This document shows positions 2,419 through 43,891 of a stretch of 64,000 nt of DNA, one piece after another. The DNA is from an uncultured Planctomycetaceae bacterium (GTDB taxonomy: Bacteria > Planctomycetota > Planctomycetia > Pirellulales > Pirellulaceae), in contig CAWVZW010000002.1 of NCBI GenBank assembly GCA_963934735.1, positions 3,919-67,918 on the forward strand. Reading direction: 5' to 3'. The notes under the pieces were generated by a model. It was not told where the DNA came from. It did not search any database and was given only the letters and a program-made list of their open reading frames with translations. The number at the start of each line of letters is the position of its first letter. Position 1 is the first letter of the stretch. The translations under genes and the position numbers were made by a program.

Positions 2419-3606
2419 ATGACTAAGCAATCGATCACACAAATAGATGTCTCAGGAAAGCGAGTGTTGCTGCGAGTTGATTTCAACGTGCCGTTAACCG
2501 CCACCGGTGAAATCACCGATGACCGTCGTATTGAAATGGCGTTACCTTCGATTCATTCGGTGCTGCAACGTGGCGGTAGCCTGGTATTGATGAGTCATCT
2601 CGGTCGACCACAGGGTAATGACGATGACGGCAGGTTCAGTTTAGCTCCGGTTGCCAAGCGCTTAGCAGAACTCCTCGGACAGGATGTTGCCATGGCCAGC
2701 GACACCGTTGGCGACGATGCGAACGCAAAAGTATCACAACTTACAGATGGTGGTGTTGTCGTTCTTGAAAATTTACGTTTCGACCCAGCGGAAAAGGCAG
2801 GGGATACGGAGTTTGCTGCAAAACTAGCGAGTTTTGGCGACGTGTATTGCAACGATGCTTTTGGAACGTGTCATCGTGACCACGCTTCCATGGTCGCCGT
2901 GCCGCAAGCGATGGCGGATAAACCGCGAGTTGTCGGATTACTTGTCGAAAAGGAAATCAAATACTTATCTGCAGCGATTGAGTCGCCCAAGCGACCGTTT
3001 ATCGCAATACTCGGTGGTGCCAAGGTATCCGACAAAATCATGGTCATCAATAAGTTACTGGACGTTTGTGACCACATTTTAATTGGCGGCGCAATGGCCT
3101 ATACGTTTTCGTTAGCTCGTGGCGGAGAGGTGGGTAAGAGTTTAGTTGAACCGGACAAAGTCGAATTAGCAACTGATCTTCTGCAACGTGGCGGCGACGT
3201 ACTGGTCCTGCCTGTGGATACGCATTGCGGTGACGATTTTTCAGCGGATTGCAATAAAGAAGTTGTTCCGTTTGGTGCAATCTCCGCCGAATTTGAAGGA
3301 TTGGATATCGGCCCTGAAACCGCGGAGAAATATGCGGAATTCTTAGCCGACGCCGGGACCGTTGTTTGGAACGGCCCCATGGGTGTGTGCGAAATGCCGC
3401 CCTTTGACGCGGGGACTCGCCGTGTTGCCGAAGCGATTGCGGCAAGCGAAGCAATCAGTATTATCGGTGGTGGCGACAGTGCCGCTGCCATTGAACAACT
3501 AGGGTTCGCGGAACAAGTATCCCATGTAAGCACAGGAGGCGGCGCAAGTCTCGCCATGCTAGAAGGCAAGACGTTTGCCGCCGTGGATCTACTTGACGAT
3601 GCGTAA
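2419..3606 (+). CDS. pgk: Phosphoglycerate kinase
   Basis: 395 aa, with LLRVDFNVP near the N-terminus, [12 protein letters not shown], and the C-terminal [10 protein letters not shown] and STGGGASL motifs. Confidence 0.95.
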
Positions 3607-3634
3607 GTGTCAAGCGTCAGCAACTTAGTCGTTA

Positions 3635-3910
3635 TTAGATACCCGCAGCATCGGCCGCTTCCGAGTCGATTTTTCGCAGTTGTTCACGAGCAAGTTGCCT
3701 CACTCCGTAGTAGACATCTTCAGCGCTGGCTGTTACCCGCGTCTCGACAGCCTCCTGCGTACCCGGAAGCGTCACAACAAGCGTCTTGATCGCCCAATTC
3801 CGCGTTGCCTCAGGTTCAGTGGTGTTCAGGACAATCTCGCTCAAGACGGGCACGGCGAGCTTCGCTTTTGGACCGAGTTCATGCAAAGCTCCCACCGGGC
3901 GATATCGCAC
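3635..3910 (-). CDS. Small HEAT-repeat protein; start uncertain, repeat homology continues upstream to nt 3964
   Basis: HEAT/PBS-lyase-like repeat pattern (RYRPVGALHELGPKAKLAVPVLSEIV). The first canonical start is GTG at 3910. The frame stays open and repeat-like (DDAVNDLIALLGDEDRYV) back to the TAA of the upstream sulfatase. Confidence 0.35.
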   Translation of the reverse strand: MRYRPVGALHELGPKAKLAVPVLSEIVLNTTEPEATRNWAIKTLVVTLPGTQEAVETRVTASAEDVYYGVRQLAREQLRKIDSEAADAAGI

Positions 3911-3964
3911 GTACCGATCCTCGTCACCCAGCAGGGCAATCAGATCATTGACGGCGTCATCGCA

Positions 3965-5440
3965 TTATCTGGTCGCTGGAACACCTGGAAGATACTGCAA
4001 CGCCGGATCGTTGCTGTCGCGCATCTCATGGAGAATCTTTGCGTGCAGTGCGTCGACGATGGTGTTGTGTTTGGGATTGTTGATCTGGTTACTTAATTCA
4101 CCCGGATCGTTTTTGAGATCGTAGAGTTCGTCGAGATGTGGGTTTCTGAAATCACGAACCAGTTTCCATCGGTCGGTGCGCCACATACGCAGTTCGCTGA
4201 GGAATTGATACGCGTAGTCCTCATAGAAGGAAAGAAACGAAAAGACGCCGTCACGCTGCGTGTCGTTCTTCTTCCCTGTCAGCAGCGGGACTAAGTTTTC
4301 ACCGCGCAGGCCCAGGGCCTGCGGTTGCTCGATCCCCGCCATGGCCAGAATTGTGGGAAGCCAATCGAGGTTCGTGGTGTCCGCGTCAATTCGAGCCCCC
4401 GGCTTGATGTGTCCGGGCCAGCGGACCATAGTCGGCACCCGGATCGAGTTCTCCCACATGTTGGGCCGCGCGTTCGCGCCAATGTTTCCTTTGCGAGGAA
4501 CAGTGTGCTTCAAAATCCAGATGCCGTTGCCTTTGTGCCAGATGCCGTGGTGGCCTATGTTGTACCCATGGTCGGAGGTGTAGATGACGATCGTGTTGTC
4601 AGCGATTCCCTTCGTTTCGAGGGCCGCCATGACGCGACCCAAATTCCGATCTACACTGCGGGTCGACGCCAAGTATTCCTTCATCCACTGATCGACCCGT
4701 TCGCGGTCAAGATCTGGGTAGTCGGGAACATCCGCCCTGAAGTCGGGCTTGTCGTAAGGAGCCATATCTTCCGGGGCAACGGGCAGCCACTTCGTGTGCG
4801 GCGCCCGCGTATGCCAGGCGATGAAGAACGGACGCTTCTGCTTATCGTTGATGTGCGATTCCATTCTTGCTATCACGTCATCTGCCAGCACATCCGCGGT
4901 GAGTCCCTTCAACAATATGCGTTTGTCGTTTTGGTAAAAGTGAGGATTTATGACCGGGAATGCACCCTGGATGTGACCCATAAAGTAGTCAAAGCCGTGG
5001 TTGGTGGGATAGTGTTTTTCTTCTTCGCCAAGATGCCACTTGCCGATCAGCGACGTGGAGTATCCGGCTGCCTTAAGCAATTCCGCAGTTGTGACTGAAT
5101 CGGGATTGATCCCCTGTCCTTTTGCGTTTTGCCCGAACTGCACCCAGTTGCGCACGCCGACTTCGTAACCGTATAGCCCCGTCAGAGTCGCGGCTCGTGA
5201 TGGCGAACAGACCGGTGTGGTAACGAAGGCGTTCTCTAGGTAAGCCCCCTCCGAAACCAGTTTGTCCATGTTCGGCGTGAGCGCCTGCTTGTTGCCGGAC
5301 GCGCCCAAGGCCCATGGTGCTTGATCATCGGTGCAGATGAAGAGGATGTTGGGCTGTTGGGCATTTGTTTCAGCGTGTAAAACCGCGCTGTTGGTGAGAA
5401 ACAAAGTTACAGATAGTAGAACGATAACGATAAGTTTCAT
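3965..5440 (-). CDS. Secreted sulfatase (formylglycine-dependent arylsulfatase family)
   Basis: Sec signal MKLIVIVLLSVTLFLTNSAVLHA, the ILFICTDDQ metal-binding start, the CSPSRAATLTG FGly motif, and GKWHLG and TSDHG motifs. Confidence 0.85.
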   Translation of the reverse strand: MKLIVIVLLSVTLFLTNSAVLHAETNAQQPNILFICTDDQAPWALGASGNKQALTPNMDKLVSEGAYLENAFVTTPVCSPSRAATLTGLYGYEVGVRNWVQFGQNAKGQGINPDSVTTAELLKAAGYSTSLIGKWHLGEEEKHYPTNHGFDYFMGHIQGAFPVINPHFYQNDKRILLKGLTADVLADDVIARMESHINDKQKRPFFIAWHTRAPHTKWLPVAPEDMAPYDKPDFRADVPDYPDLDRERVDQWMKEYLASTRSVDRNLGRVMAALETKGIADNTIVIYTSDHGYNIGHHGIWHKGNGIWILKHTVPRKGNIGANARPNMWENSIRVPTMVRWPGHIKPGARIDADTTNLDWLPTILAMAGIEQPQALGLRGENLVPLLTGKKNDTQRDGVFSFLSFYEDYAYQFLSELRMWRTDRWKLVRDFRNPHLDELYDLKNDPGELSNQINNPKHNTIVDALHAKILHEMRDSNDPALQYLPGVPATR

Positions 5441-29001: not shown

Positions 29002-29898
29002 ATGAGCAACGATTACTACAACACGTTGGGGCTATCTCAAGGCGCCGAAAAAAAAGAAATTCAAAAGGCATATCGAGAACTTGCTCGAAAGTATCACCCG
29101 GATATGAATCCTGATGATGCTAGTGCTAAAGCCAAGTTCCAAGAAGTACAGCATGCCTATGATGTCCTCTCCGATGAGAACAAACGCTCACAATATGATC
29201 AGTTTGGCGAGGGGTTTGAGAACATGGCGCAGGGCCCTGGCGGGTTTGGAGGCGGAGGGAGCCCGTTTGCCGGTGCCGATCTTGAATCCCTATTTGGCGG
29301 TGGAGGTGGTGGCGGTTTTGAACAGTTCTTCAACACGGGTGGACCACAGGGTCCACGTCCGACTAAGGGTCAAAGCCTCGAGGACAAGTTAAAAATACCC
29401 TTTGCTACCGCTGTGACCGGAGGTAAAGCATCCGTGAATACAGTCGCAGAAGACGGAAATACGACTTCCGTACAAGTTACAATTCCTGCAGGTATCGAAA
29501 GCGGACAGAAGATACGCCTCAAAGGAAAAGGATACCCCGGAAGCAATGGCGGGCCCAATGGCGACATCTTGCTGACAATCAATGTTGCACCGCATCCCGA
29601 CTACCGCCGCAATGGTAATGATCTCGAATTAACAATGCCGTTGACGCTGGCCGAAGCACTACAAGGTACTGAACTCGATATCCCGACGCCGTATAGTACC
29701 ATCACGCTCAAAATTCCAGCTGGAACACCTAGTGGGAAGCGGTTTCGCGTAAAACAACATGGTGTGACTCACAAAACGGGAAAAGGAAACTTGTTCGTTA
29801 TTACGCAAATCCACTTTCCTGATGAGCCGCCCGCTGAACTTGTCGAGCAAATTGACGCATTACAGCAACCGAACCCACGCCATCAAATAAGCTGGTAG
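29002..29898 (+). CDS. DnaJ-class co-chaperone without zinc finger (CbpA/DnaJ type II-like)
   Basis: J domain [12 protein letters not shown]...KYHPDMNP, a Gly/Phe-rich linker, no CxxCxGxG repeats, and C-terminal DnaJ_C beta domains. Confidence 0.85.
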
Positions 29899-40458: not shown

Positions 40459-41058
40459 TTAATACTTCTGCCTGCCCGACATCGCGTCTGCCAAAATTTC
40501 TTTATTAGTGAACTCGAGGATACTACCGGTTGTTATTCCGCGCGCTAGCCTAGTGATTTCCAAGTCACATTCGCCTAGCAAGTTTGTGATGTGCAAAGCA
40601 GTGCCATCCCCTTCCACCGTCGGGTTGGTCGCCATGATTATCTCTTTAATTTCACTATTACGAACTCGATCAACCAAAGCGTTAATCGTCAATTGTTCGG
40701 GACCGATTCCTTCCAGAGGAGCAATTCGTCCCAGCAGTACGTGATACAAACCATTATAGACGCCGGCGTCTTCGAGAGACATCAGATCGCGTGGTTGTTC
40801 GACCACACACAAGGTATGCTGGTCACGTCGCATATCATTGCAGACCAAGCAAGTTTCTTGTTCCGACAGATTAAAACAAACGCTGCAATAACGAACATTT
40901 TCGCGGACATAGCGGATCGAATCGGCTAATGCCAATGCTTCTGACTTGTTGACTCGTAACAAATGATAGGCCAATCGCTCGGCACTTTTTCGCCCAATAC
41001 CGGGAAGCTTGGAGAGTTCTCCTATCATATTTGTTACGGACTCTGCCAATTCTGCCAT
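40459..41058 (-). CDS. recR: Recombination protein RecR
   Basis: LPGIGRKSAERLAYHLL (HhH), Cys4 zinc finger CSVCFNLSEQETCLVC, Toprim (LCVVEQPRD). Confidence 0.95.
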   Translation of the reverse strand: MAELAESVTNMIGELSKLPGIGRKSAERLAYHLLRVNKSEALALADSIRYVRENVRYCSVCFNLSEQETCLVCNDMRRDQHTLCVVEQPRDLMSLEDAGVYNGLYHVLLGRIAPLEGIGPEQLTINALVDRVRNSEIKEIIMATNPTVEGDGTALHITNLLGECDLEITRLARGITTGSILEFTNKEILADAMSGRQKY

Positions 41059-41085: not shown

Positions 41086-41445
41086 TCATGCGTCATCTAG
41101 TTGATCTAGATTTTCAAGTGCTTCGGTAAATCCTGGAATCCCAAGCTCCGCAGTCATTTCTTGCGTCAGTTGAGCATGCAGTGATTTCGTCTTTCCGCGA
41201 GCTTCGTTAACGGCTGCGCGAACCAAATCTTCAATCATCTCGCATTCGTTTTTTTCAATCAATTGTGGATCGATTGAAACGCTGATGACATCTCCCAATC
41301 CAGTCATCGAGACGCTGACCATACCACCACCCGCGACCCCGCTCACCGTCTCGGATTCTAGGCGACCATTTAGTTCTTCAACACGTCCACCCATTTCACG
41401 GGCTTTTTTCATCAGGGAAGTCATATTACTTAAGGACTTAAACAT
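41086..41445 (-). CDS. ybaB: YbaB/EbfC family nucleoid-associated protein
   Basis: 119 aa with MKKAREMGGRVEEL...GGGMVSVSMTGLGDVISVSIDP...DLVRAAVNEA, in the conserved dnaX-ybaB-recR order. Confidence 0.9.
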   Translation of the reverse strand: MFKSLSNMTSLMKKAREMGGRVEELNGRLESETVSGVAGGGMVSVSMTGLGDVISVSIDPQLIEKNECEMIEDLVRAAVNEARGKTKSLHAQLTQEMTAELGIPGFTEALENLDQLDDA

Positions 41446-41590: not shown

Positions 41591-43438
41591 TTACTGCGGA
41601 TGATCGATATGGCTAATCTCAGCTTCAAATACTTCAACGGCCCTTTGTACGAACGGGTTTCCCTCGGCTTCGATATTGAGTTCTCGTGAGGTTTTCACCA
41701 CCGCTACAGGAGACTCGTCCACAGCGTGTTGCCGTGACAGCCCAAAGCTAATTTTAAATCGCGTGCCTGTAATGGCATTTAGCCCGTCAACAACCTTTTG
41801 CCGATGCTCAGGACGTTCACAAGTTTCTTTTTGGAAGGAAAAATCCTGAGGAAACAATACCGATATATGGCATGGTTCCAGTAGCGACACTTCAACTGCC
41901 GATTGTAAAATATTGGCCAGCAGATCGTCGAAATCAGCACACAACTGGTTCCACACTGCTGCAATATTTTCAGAACTGATGTCGACCAGATCCCCGACAG
42001 ATTTGGTCTCCGGAACCGTCGGCGGATCCTCTACTGGCATTACGACTTCGTTTTGGGCAGTGGAATCCACCGCTGCCGTCAGTTCCTGCGATATCGCTAA
42101 AGTTTCTACTGTATGCGTTGCTGCCGCATCAGTTGTCACTGGAGCAGACTCAGACTGCATTAGGTCATTTTTTTTTTCGACATCCGCACTAGTGTCATTG
42201 CTCTGATTACCGCCAGCGGCCACTGGCGAATTCACGGCCAATGCCATCAACTCAGGGCTTTGCAGTAGATTAAGCCAATTCTGAATCTCATCAAGTTCTT
42301 CCAACGTCGCAATGCGGATGACCGTCATTTCAATAAGCAAGCGAACTTGCACACTGTTGCGCATTTTTCGAAACATCTCCTGCAGGATTTCGAGCGCGGC
42401 CAGAGCCGTATATTTTCCGATCGATTCTGCAAGCTGTTGCACTCTGGCAAATTCATCCACTTGTGTAAACTCCATGATCTCCTGACCGGCGCCAACCGCA
42501 ACGGTCAACGTATCTCGATATACGCCCATCAACTGTTGAGCCACTTGTTCAGGCTCAGACCCAGATTTCCACAGTTCGTGCAAACAGCCAATTGCTCCGG
42601 CGGCATCACGGTGGCTAAGGTATTCCAGCAAATCCAAAATACGGCCACTCGCGGTCGTCCCCAACAGTCGATGCACATCATCGACCGTGATATGACCCGT
42701 GCAGAAAGCCATTAGTTGCTCGAGCAACGACTGACTATCTCGCATCGAACCGTGTGCTCGTCTGGCAACCAAATCCAAGGCAGATTCGTCCGCTGAGCGG
42801 CCTTCGGATTCGACAATGAATTGCAAGCGCTCCTGAATTTTGTCGTGGTTAACCGGCAACAGGTCAAAGCGTTGGCAGCGTGAAAGCACCGTGATCGGAA
42901 TCTTGTCTGGGTCCGTTGTGCAAAACATAAACTTCACGTGCTCTGGTGGTTCCTCCAGCGTCTTGAGTAACCCGTTAAACGCCTGACGTGACAGCATGTG
43001 CACTTCGTCAATGATATAGATTTTGTAACGGCAACGACTTGCCATCACGGAGACATTTTTTCGCAATGTTCGGATTTCATCAATCCCATTGTTGCTAGCA
43101 CCGTCGATTTCAATCACGTCCATATCTTCGCCGCTGGAAATCATGCGACAGATGTCGCACGTCTGGCACGGTTGAATCGTCGGGCCCGTTGTGCAGTTTA
43201 GTGCTTTAGCAAAAATACGTGCCGTCGTTGTTTTGCCAACTCCACGAGGCCCAGCAAACAAATACGCATGTCCCACTCGCCCAGTTTCAATCGCATTTCC
43301 CAAGGCCGTCCGCACGTGCGACTGACCAATCAACTCTTCAAAAGATTGTGGACGATATCGACGAGCCACCACAACGTAACCGTCTTTATCGGCAACATCG
43401 TGACTCAATTCGTTTTGATCTTCTGTAGTTCCAGTCAT
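41591..43438 (-). CDS. dnaX: DNA polymerase III subunit tau (gamma/tau), with an internal A10 slippery run
   Basis: 615 aa with Walker A GPRGVGKTT, zinc module CQTCDIC, DEVHML and the SRC motif (VLSRCQRF). The A10 run is at 42168-42177 (codons 421-424). Confidence 0.9.
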   Translation of the reverse strand: MTGTTEDQNELSHDVADKDGYVVVARRYRPQSFEELIGQSHVRTALGNAIETGRVGHAYLFAGPRGVGKTTTARIFAKALNCTTGPTIQPCQTCDICRMISSGEDMDVIEIDGASNNGIDEIRTLRKNVSVMASRCRYKIYIIDEVHMLSRQAFNGLLKTLEEPPEHVKFMFCTTDPDKIPITVLSRCQRFDLLPVNHDKIQERLQFIVESEGRSADESALDLVARRAHGSMRDSQSLLEQLMAFCTGHITVDDVHRLLGTTASGRILDLLEYLSHRDAAGAIGCLHELWKSGSEPEQVAQQLMGVYRDTLTVAVGAGQEIMEFTQVDEFARVQQLAESIGKYTALAALEILQEMFRKMRNSVQVRLLIEMTVIRIATLEELDEIQNWLNLLQSPELMALAVNSPVAAGGNQSNDTSADVEKKNDLMQSESAPVTTDAAATHTVETLAISQELTAAVDSTAQNEVVMPVEDPPTVPETKSVGDLVDISSENIAAVWNQLCADFDDLLANILQSAVEVSLLEPCHISVLFPQDFSFQKETCERPEHRQKVVDGLNAITGTRFKISFGLSRQHAVDESPVAVVKTSRELNIEAEGNPFVQRAVEVFEAEISHIDHPQ

Positions 43439-43658
43439 GGCAATACGGTTTTACGCTTACTTTAAGGTTGTGCGGTGAACGCACGGAAATATTAGTCCAG
43501 TGGGAAAATGCAAATACTAATTGAACGAGAAGCAATTCCGATGGCTCATTGGGTATTACCCGCGCTGTAGACATTGTAACGAAGATTGAATGCTTTCGCG
43601 CCAACTATCTTCGAGGGTAGTGTCATTCAACTGCGGTTTTAAGCCAAAAAGCAAAAGA

Positions 43659-43766
43659 CGCTGTCACAAAATGGTACTCGCACAGAAGTACCCCGCTTAG
43701 AGCTGCTCCCGTTAAGGCCTGACTCGGTTCACGGTTCCCTCTTGCGAGCACCATTTCACAACAGCG
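43659..43766 (-). ncRNA. ffs: Signal recognition particle RNA (small bacterial/4.5S type)
   Basis: The minus strand reads CGCTGTTGTGAAATGGTGCTCGCA...GTCAGGCCTTAACGGGAGCAGC...TGCGAGTACCATTTTGTGACAGCG. The two ends form about 24 consecutive Watson-Crick or GU pairs. The apical part matches the conserved domain IV sequence (E. coli GGUGCU...GUCAGGUCCGGAAGGAAGCAGC). It sits in the classical position upstream of dnaX. Confidence 0.8.
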
Positions 43767-43891
43767 TTCTATATGTTGAAACGGTTTTGGATTTTCCACC
43801 AACTAATTTCTGCAATCACTATATAGATGTTTTAAATCGACCTGACCATTTCCGCAAGAGGCGACCAGTCACTCCGTTACCCCTGACCGCT

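Follow-up and report, generated by a model that had tools for sequence, protein, structure and literature searches.

The stretch of DNA analysed here, called the window throughout, comprises 64,000 nucleotides (nt) of an uncultured Planctomycetaceae bacterium (contig CAWVZW010000002.1, positions 3,919 to 67,918). On its minus strand lies a dnaX gene, for the gamma/tau clamp-loader subunit of DNA polymerase III, the coding strand of which carries, past its middle, a run of ten consecutive A residues (A10). dnaX is the standard example of a gene that yields two replisome subunits through recoding, and this A10 run, with the stop codons that lie close to it in both other frames, is the subject of the present study. 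The gene had been called dnaX in an earlier reading made from the letters alone (hereafter the sequence-only reading), and this identity is plain. Indeed, Pfam finds DNA_pol3_delta2 (PF13177, 7.8e-42), DNAX_ATPase_lid (PF22608) and DNA_pol3_gamma3 (PF12169) at residues 39-195, 200-248 and 250-382, respectively. The NCBIfam model TIGR02397 scores 441 bits for a cutoff of 250, and PRK05563, which describes the full-length gamma/tau protein, scores 468 bits for a cutoff of 400 and aligns over residues 23-607. The N-terminal 340 residues match the E. coli gamma/tau chains 3glh, 1jr3 and 8gj0 of the PDB (E 1e-82). The tau-specific C-terminal extension is present, with 233 residues beyond Pfam domain III, and the full-length NCBIfam models align up to residue 607-613. 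The Pfam search of the dnaX product gave no match to tau domain IV/V; in an 18-sequence planctomycete alignment (A1), this C-terminal region contains the invariant residues W496, F529, C540, G558, A600 and F604.

Over positions 42150-42180 the minus strand reads GAT GTC GAA AAA AAA AAT GAC CTA ATG. The run begins at nt 1262 of the gene (codon 421, phase 1), at 69% of the length of a single uninterrupted open reading frame (ORF) of 615 codons (Table 1). This puts it in the linker ahead of the tau-only region, about 40 residues past the clamp-loader core (residue 382 is the last of domain III). Both the placement of the run and the two short products proposed in the sequence-only reading were borne out, the former by the minus-strand reading and the position within the ORF, the latter by editing the run in silico. 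Indeed, lengthening it to A11 gives a protein of 424 aa ending in ...DVEKKK, and shortening it to A9 gives 425 aa ending in ...DVEKKMT. Products of 426 and 423 aa are obtained with A12 and A8, respectively, and A13 restores a tau of 616 aa, with one Lys added. The computed masses are 67.9 kDa for the zero-frame, tau-like product and ~47 kDa for the gamma-like short products.

Table 1. Features of the dnaX locus, with positions in the window.
Feature	Position	Strand	Description	Basis
dnaX ORF	41591-43438	-	zero-frame product tau-like, 615 aa	ORF listing, Pfam, NCBIfam, E. coli structure match
Codons 1-420	42179-43438	-	common to long and short products; AAA+ clamp-loader domains I-III plus the start of the linker	Pfam, alignment to E. 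coli gamma
A10 homopolymer (template strand: T10)	42168-42177	-	candidate slippage-prone recoding site; codons 421-424, GAA AAA AAA AAT	sequence and conservation
-1 frame TGA	42165-42167	-	abuts the A10 run; would stop translation after ...EKKK (424 aa) on A11 transcripts or upon a -1 ribosomal shift	
+1/-2 frame TAA	42160-42162	-	5 nt past the A10 run; would end A9 or A12 transcripts after ...EKKMT / ...EKKKMT (425-426 aa)	
Codons 425-615	41594-42166	-	tau-only, lost in the predicted short products; variable linker, then conserved C-terminal domain	
ybaB/ebfC	41086-41445	-		TIGR00103
recR	40459-41058	-		TIGR00615
Small bacterial SRP RNA (ffs)	43665-43757	-	directly upstream of dnaX	RF00169, 52 bits

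No other homopolymer in the 64 kb window, whatever its base, is as long as the A10 run: the next longest has 8 residues and only 7 runs reach at least 7. By extrapolating the run-length decay in the window (about 4-5-fold per extra base), we would expect some 0.04-0.1 such runs per 64 kb, counting both strands, and the genes of the window contain no other run of this length. Both off-frame stops lie as close as they do here at only ~2% of the dnaX codon positions (0.6% under a stricter definition). Taken alone, this single sequence makes a moderate and only suggestive case for recoding, for which conservation is decisive. The second-longest homopolymer is an A8 at 29048-29055 on the plus strand, in the J-domain of a DnaJ-like ORF (29002-29898), where GCC GAA AAA AAA GAA ATT encodes AEKKEI.

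Conservation was followed in 15 planctomycete loci taken from a scan of one genome per species and in the contigs of database homologues. With two exceptions (L007 and L008), every readable planctomycete dnaX that reaches the linker carries A9 or A10 at the homologous position, ~35-60 residues past clamp-loader domain III. The carriers (L001-L006, L009, L010, L013-L015, L100-L111 and the window) span 42-97% protein identity and a GC content of 0.46-0.58. In 20 independent loci, setting aside three variant assemblies discussed below, the run is always in frame, with A10 in 12 and A9 in 8 of them; the run of the window is the same in relatives at 89-97% identity. The linker around it cannot be aligned between planctomycete clades, and in an 8-sequence alignment of the closest clade the sole fully conserved block is CGAAAAAAAAAATGA.

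At the protein level, the site appears as an [EQ]KK[NTSK] motif at residues ~395-460, present in 112 of 120 planctomycete homologues. The Lys codons of this motif are all AAA, and the codon before them has AA as its last two letters, or just a final A (GCA, for example). AAA is kept there even though AAG dominates elsewhere in some of these loci: AAA makes up 26% of the Lys codons in L009 and 33% in L103. Multiplying the per-lineage probabilities of an all-A synonymous choice gives ~1e-11.6, a figure that overstates the significance since the lineages are related. The residue that follows KK varies (N, T, S, K or G), and its codon nearly always starts with A, with G only in L010.

A TGA in the -1 frame comes at once after this codon or within ~20 nt; measured from a point 2 nt ahead of the end of the run, the -1 stop codon is complete within 8 nt in 15 of 17 relatives and within 21 nt in all 17. 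The +1 stop (TAA, TAG or TGA) stands at the same offset in L001, L002, L004, L005, L013 and L017, where the codons that create it differ (CTA A, GTA A, ATA G, CTG A). The expectation that orthologues would keep the run and the off-frame stops therefore holds for the run and the -1 stop, down to 42% identity and in flanks that are not themselves kept, and holds less well for the +1 stop (L111 and L101). The run would thus be under purifying selection among orthologues, and the site seems to have been kept by selection over deep divergence while the linker around it was rewritten.

This comparative evidence supports the gamma-subunit recoding put forward in the sequence-only reading, and we consider that the A10 run is very probably a functional recoding signal giving a short DnaX. 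What we infer for this organism is slippage as such, as well as its tau:gamma ratio and the use of the short product, presumably gamma-like, by the clamp loader. As to the mechanism, a site for programmed recoding like that in the dnaX of Thermus thermophilus, with transcriptional slippage as the main route, appears the somewhat better bet. All the sequence-level features of such a site were found here: at least nine A residues after the core in a single tau ORF, nearby stops in both off-frames and a conserved run. On the T10 template, the nascent RNA would realign within the RNA polymerase and yield a pool of mRNAs with A9, A10, A11, A12 and so on. Messengers with A10 (and likewise A13 or A7) would encode full-length tau of 615 aa, give or take one Lys; those with A11 would meet the abutting TGA immediately and give the 424-aa product with its EKKK end; those with A9 or A12 would stop two codons further on, at the TAA, giving 425-426 aa and a KKMT end. 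One gene would in this way provide tau together with gamma-like proteins that keep domains I-III and lose the C-terminal domain. Slippage of the ribosome by -1 on the in-phase A_AAA_AAA would lead to the identical EKKK product and possibly add to the yield.

Could this ribosomal slippage be the main mechanism, with heterogeneity of the transcripts a minor matter? The site would then be just as real, and programmed -1 frameshifting of the E. coli type on A_AAA_AAA would end at the abutting TGA. The heptamer is indeed in the correct phase, GA[A AAA AAA] AAT GA, with the -1 stop one codon later as in the E. coli anatomy, and among the relatives the -1 stop is more strictly kept than the +1 stop. 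However, the stimulators that accompany such a site were not found. The 50 nt downstream of the run form no stable fold (z = +0.14, versus -2.49 for the E. coli control), and single-sequence folding of 80 nt revealed no stimulatory structure on either side (z = -0.81 downstream, -0.44 upstream). No consensus structure emerged from the 8-sequence closest clade, for which alifold gave only -1.68 kcal/mol, and among the 50-nt downstream folds of 18 lineages structure was seen only in L100 (z = -2.95) and, weakly, in L007 and L017. The Rfam DnaX frameshift element was not detected in this dnaX at E<=10 nor in seven relatives at E<=1; the only hit of these searches was the signal recognition particle (SRP) RNA. 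The 20 nt upstream, ACACTAGTGCGGATGTCG, read directly, contain no GGAGG or AGGGAG-like Shine-Dalgarno motif, and this stretch is not conserved among close relatives. Moreover, the in-phase heptamer is A_AAA_AAA followed by AAT, the E. coli-specific A_AAA_AAG not being present in the window, and A_AAA_AAA is reported to be far less shift-prone than A_AAA_AAG in E. coli (PMC5009743). Ribosomal slippage needs only 7 A residues whereas 9-10 are selected here, and the upkeep of a +1 stop by differing codons in several lineages matters only if other frames are entered. Transcriptional slippage is favoured as the main route because 9-10 A residues and not 7 are kept, because the +1 stop is usually kept and because stimulators are absent, and we regard a mainly ribosomal mechanism as rather unlikely.

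Some of the relatives also support this ribosomal reading. In L007 (3700-3790), one of the two exceptions to the long run, GCA AAA AAG AAT GAA reproduces the slippery heptamer of E. coli exactly, together with a -1 TGA, so that the -1 frame reads KKE and then stops. A ribosomal solution would thus be reachable from the poly-A state, as L007 shows, and A AAA AAG is also contained within the A9 of L009, L014 and L015. In the sister of L007, L008 (4290-4330), the site is a degenerate A AAA AAT with a -1 stop further off, and is possibly decaying.

The heptamer of L007, a pirellulaceae-like lineage, comes after a (TSEP)x9 tandem repeat in the peptide. In L006 (2438-2460), L009 (3531-3555), L014 (4237-4262) and L015 (4241-4266), the run is followed by ...AAA AGT GAA CCG GCG or ...AAG TCT GAA CCG GCC GCC, contexts close to the ...AAA AAG AGT GAA CCG GCA GCC of E. 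coli (peptide KKSEPAA); they may reflect common ancestry of the cassette or convergence. In L015, a 7-bp hairpin (CGGCUGC/GCGGCCG) is possible just downstream of the run. L014 and L015 come from long-read metagenome-assembled genomes (MFD isolates), and their dnaX region (3001-4750) is broken by several frameshifts outside the A-run, which look like assembly error and not biology.

The conservation could also be read with no recoding at all, the [EQ]KK[NTS][DE] peptide being kept for a reason that lies in the protein, such as a contact or a protease signal, and the A-run and stops being by-products. The breadth of the motif among the homologues agrees with this, AAA, GAA and AAT are the commoner synonymous codons in this genome, and the gamma of Caulobacter arises by proteolysis with no recoding (PMC5009743). 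Yet a constraint on the peptide does not explain why the synonymous sites are fixed as A even in the AAG-preferring relatives, nor why the variable residue after KK should be encoded by a codon that is nearly always A-initial, with a -1 TGA near. Long coding A-runs are in addition reported to be counter-selected for slipping (PMC1088944, PMC4066793), and this one has no equal among the genes of the window; since such runs slip, the A9-A10 tract would do so whether or not this is what it is kept for. We therefore find an explanation purely at the level of the protein quite improbable.

Three database homologues end at the site, P0023 with ...REKKK, P0036 with ...VQKKK and P0037 with ...QKKMT, exactly the termini of the predicted alternative products. 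Their contigs carry A11, A11 and A9, respectively, in flanks otherwise identical to those of A10 siblings, and the C-terminal ORF of tau is intact in another frame. The variant runs lie at 3783-3791 in L017 (A9), 3738-3748 in L018 (A11) and 1386-1396 in L019 (A11), and only in these three was a two-ORF layout seen, the one described by Antonov et al. 2013. A full-length twin exists for each shortened protein, and P0126, the twin of P0037, is found on 9 contigs versus 1 for P0037; the in-frame length is therefore the norm. We considered the A9/A11 assemblies as real two-ORF strains and set this aside, given the full-length twins and the A10 form on many contigs. They are treated here as rare variants or assembly errors, and as no evidence on their own. 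In the public annotation of these assemblies, a shortened dnaX stands beside a 'hypothetical protein' of its own (MBA61167.1 and MBA61166.1, for instance); they are probably mis-annotated recoded genes or homopolymer errors. That the tract is a hypermutable, phase-variable site in the DNA, or an artefact of sequencing or assembly, and not a signal acting in RNA, could account for the differing run lengths of near-identical relatives (A11 in L018 and L019 where L003 and L004 have A10; A9 in L017 where P0126 is full length), but is very improbable considering the large majority of in-frame lengths, the 20 independent loci all in frame, the matching run of relatives at 89-97% identity and the implausibility of switching off dnaX in the DNA, as tau is essential in the bacteria studied.

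Several points weigh against a Thermus-type site working by transcriptional slippage. Slippage by the planctomycete RNA polymerase is assumed by analogy with what is seen in E. coli and Thermus. L007 has replaced the long run by A_AAA_AAG, so that a purely ribosomal route can apparently serve the same purpose and might have a share in it here. The +1 stop is not universal, being 94 nt off in L111 and 65 nt off in L101. Going by local codon usage, an all-A coding of EKKN would be no rarity in this AT-neutral genome (probability ~0.14-0.29), and the A9 and A11 forms of the variant assemblies could be homopolymer assembly errors instead of biology.

How widespread is this kind of site? A metagenome scan seeded by the general motifs IIDEVHM and RVGHAYLF returned mostly non-planctomycete dnaX genes and was used as a background sample. 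In this near-random set of 80 bacterial dnaX (L020-L099), ~17 have A9-A11 at codon 375-445 counted from the start of the match, which corresponds to the place of the planctomycete run beyond domain III. Examples are found in L044 (1216), L050 (2622), L056 (2643), L079 (2631) and L094 (2667), and several read TAAAAAAAAAATCTGAA; in L079, from a human gut sample, the run is A11 and the ORF ends at it. Methods that look for disrupted ORFs are blind where the shifted product is the shorter one (Sharma et al. 2014, PMC4066793), and given this blind spot the single-ORF poly-A form of dnaX may be under-counted in the literature. One may tentatively go further and see in the poly-A tract an ancestral dnaX recoding cassette, phylum-wide at least and possibly much older, of which the Thermus-type, E. 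coli-type and two-ORF states would be interconvertible forms. This idea, which we hold to be possible but doubtful, is supported by the occurrence of all three states in close planctomycete relatives, by the E. coli-like KKSEP context and by the ~17 of 80 unrelated dnaX; if it is true, single-ORF poly-A recoding of dnaX is far commoner than the few documented genera suggest.

Our literature search, limited to the papers accessible to us, found none on planctomycete dnaX recoding. Recoding of dnaX at a poly-A tract is already known from Thermus, Chlorobi, Bacteroidetes and Verrucomicrobia; the planctomycete member is new, the mechanism is not. The locus would extend the transcriptional-slippage version of dnaX recoding to Planctomycetota, and the conservation of the site amid a rewritten linker is good comparative evidence for the usefulness of a gamma-like DnaX beyond Proteobacteria and Thermus. 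It also provides a useful natural series of seemingly interconverting states of the dnaX site. In practice, annotators should not call the A9/A11 variants of these genes pseudogenes, and proteomics databases for these organisms should list the ...KKK and ...KKMT termini.

The surroundings of the gene are the usual ones, as the ffs-dnaX-ybaB-recR synteny is present in the window and ybaB/ebfC and recR form with dnaX the classical dnaX-ybaB-recR operon. A scan for promoters and terminators gave no hit at the run; the T10 of the plus strand is therefore no terminator tail. No tRNA gene lies in the window, which thus gives no view of the tRNA-Lys repertoire that bears on ribosomal slippage on AAA/AAG. 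The ffs-dnaX order is also found in L006, L007, L009, L014 and L015, and several relatives (L017, L100, L101 and L103) have a sigma-54 gene after recR. An ORF at 43623-43802 (minus strand) seems to be a translation through the SRP RNA gene, and so does the long extension at the N-terminus of the database protein P0110.

Bacteria are known to reach a shortened DnaX in several ways, with which the planctomycete site can be compared. In Caulobacter crescentus, gamma results from ClpXP processing of tau (cited in PMC5009743). The end result, a DnaX without its C-terminal domains, is alike, but it is reached by post-translational proteolysis, with no signal at the nucleotide level.

In E. coli, gamma is made by a -1 ribosomal frameshift at A_AAA_AAG, stimulated by a Shine-Dalgarno-like element and a stem-loop (PMC5009743). 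The gene is the same, a -1 TGA lies where gamma ends or would end, 1-2 codons past a slippery Lys-Lys site, and an A-rich heptamer is in phase; L006, L009, L014 and L015 even read ...AAA A(A)G NNT GAA CCG G..., and L007 has the exact heptamer. In contrast, the site of the window has neither the Shine-Dalgarno-like stimulator nor the stem-loop, the Rfam match or the AAG, its run is 10 nt long and the +1 stop is kept too. Thus it is not an E. coli-type cassette: the -1 stop within 1-2 codons was found, and the AAG heptamer, hairpin and Shine-Dalgarno motif were not. The statement of the sequence-only reading that E. coli gamma ends at essentially the same position holds only approximately, since the window site lies ~25 residues nearer to domain III, after an N-terminal offset of ~18-20 residues is taken into account.

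Runs of A10 in dnaX have also been reported in Chlorobi, Bacteroidetes and the verrucomicrobium Coraliomargarita (PMC3711429, supplementary Figure S3), the last belonging to the same PVC superphylum as the organism of the window. As here, the two-ORF genes of Antonov et al. 2013 have A10 (A7-A10 across the cluster) at the gamma/tau junction, and transcriptional realignment was proposed for them (PMC3711429). There, tau depends on a slip, as the zero frame reaches a stop after the run, whereas in the window tau is the zero frame and gamma would need the slip; with its continuous ORF, the dnaX of the window is not a two-ORF gene.

Finally, the dnaX of Thermus thermophilus undergoes transcriptional slippage at an A9, with stops in both off-frames and ~50% gamma (Larsen et al. 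2000, as described in PMC1088944 and PMC5009743). What the sequence-only reading said of E. coli and Thermus matches these sources, and the sequence of the E. coli cassette was verified against 5424 genomes. The planctomycete site differs in having A10 instead of A9 and a -1 stop that abuts the run, in belonging to another phylum and in being known from its sequence. It shares with Thermus the single ORF for tau, the long A-run on the sense strand beyond the core, near stops in both non-zero frames, no need for ribosomal stimulators, and, by prediction, short products that are alike except for their last few residues.

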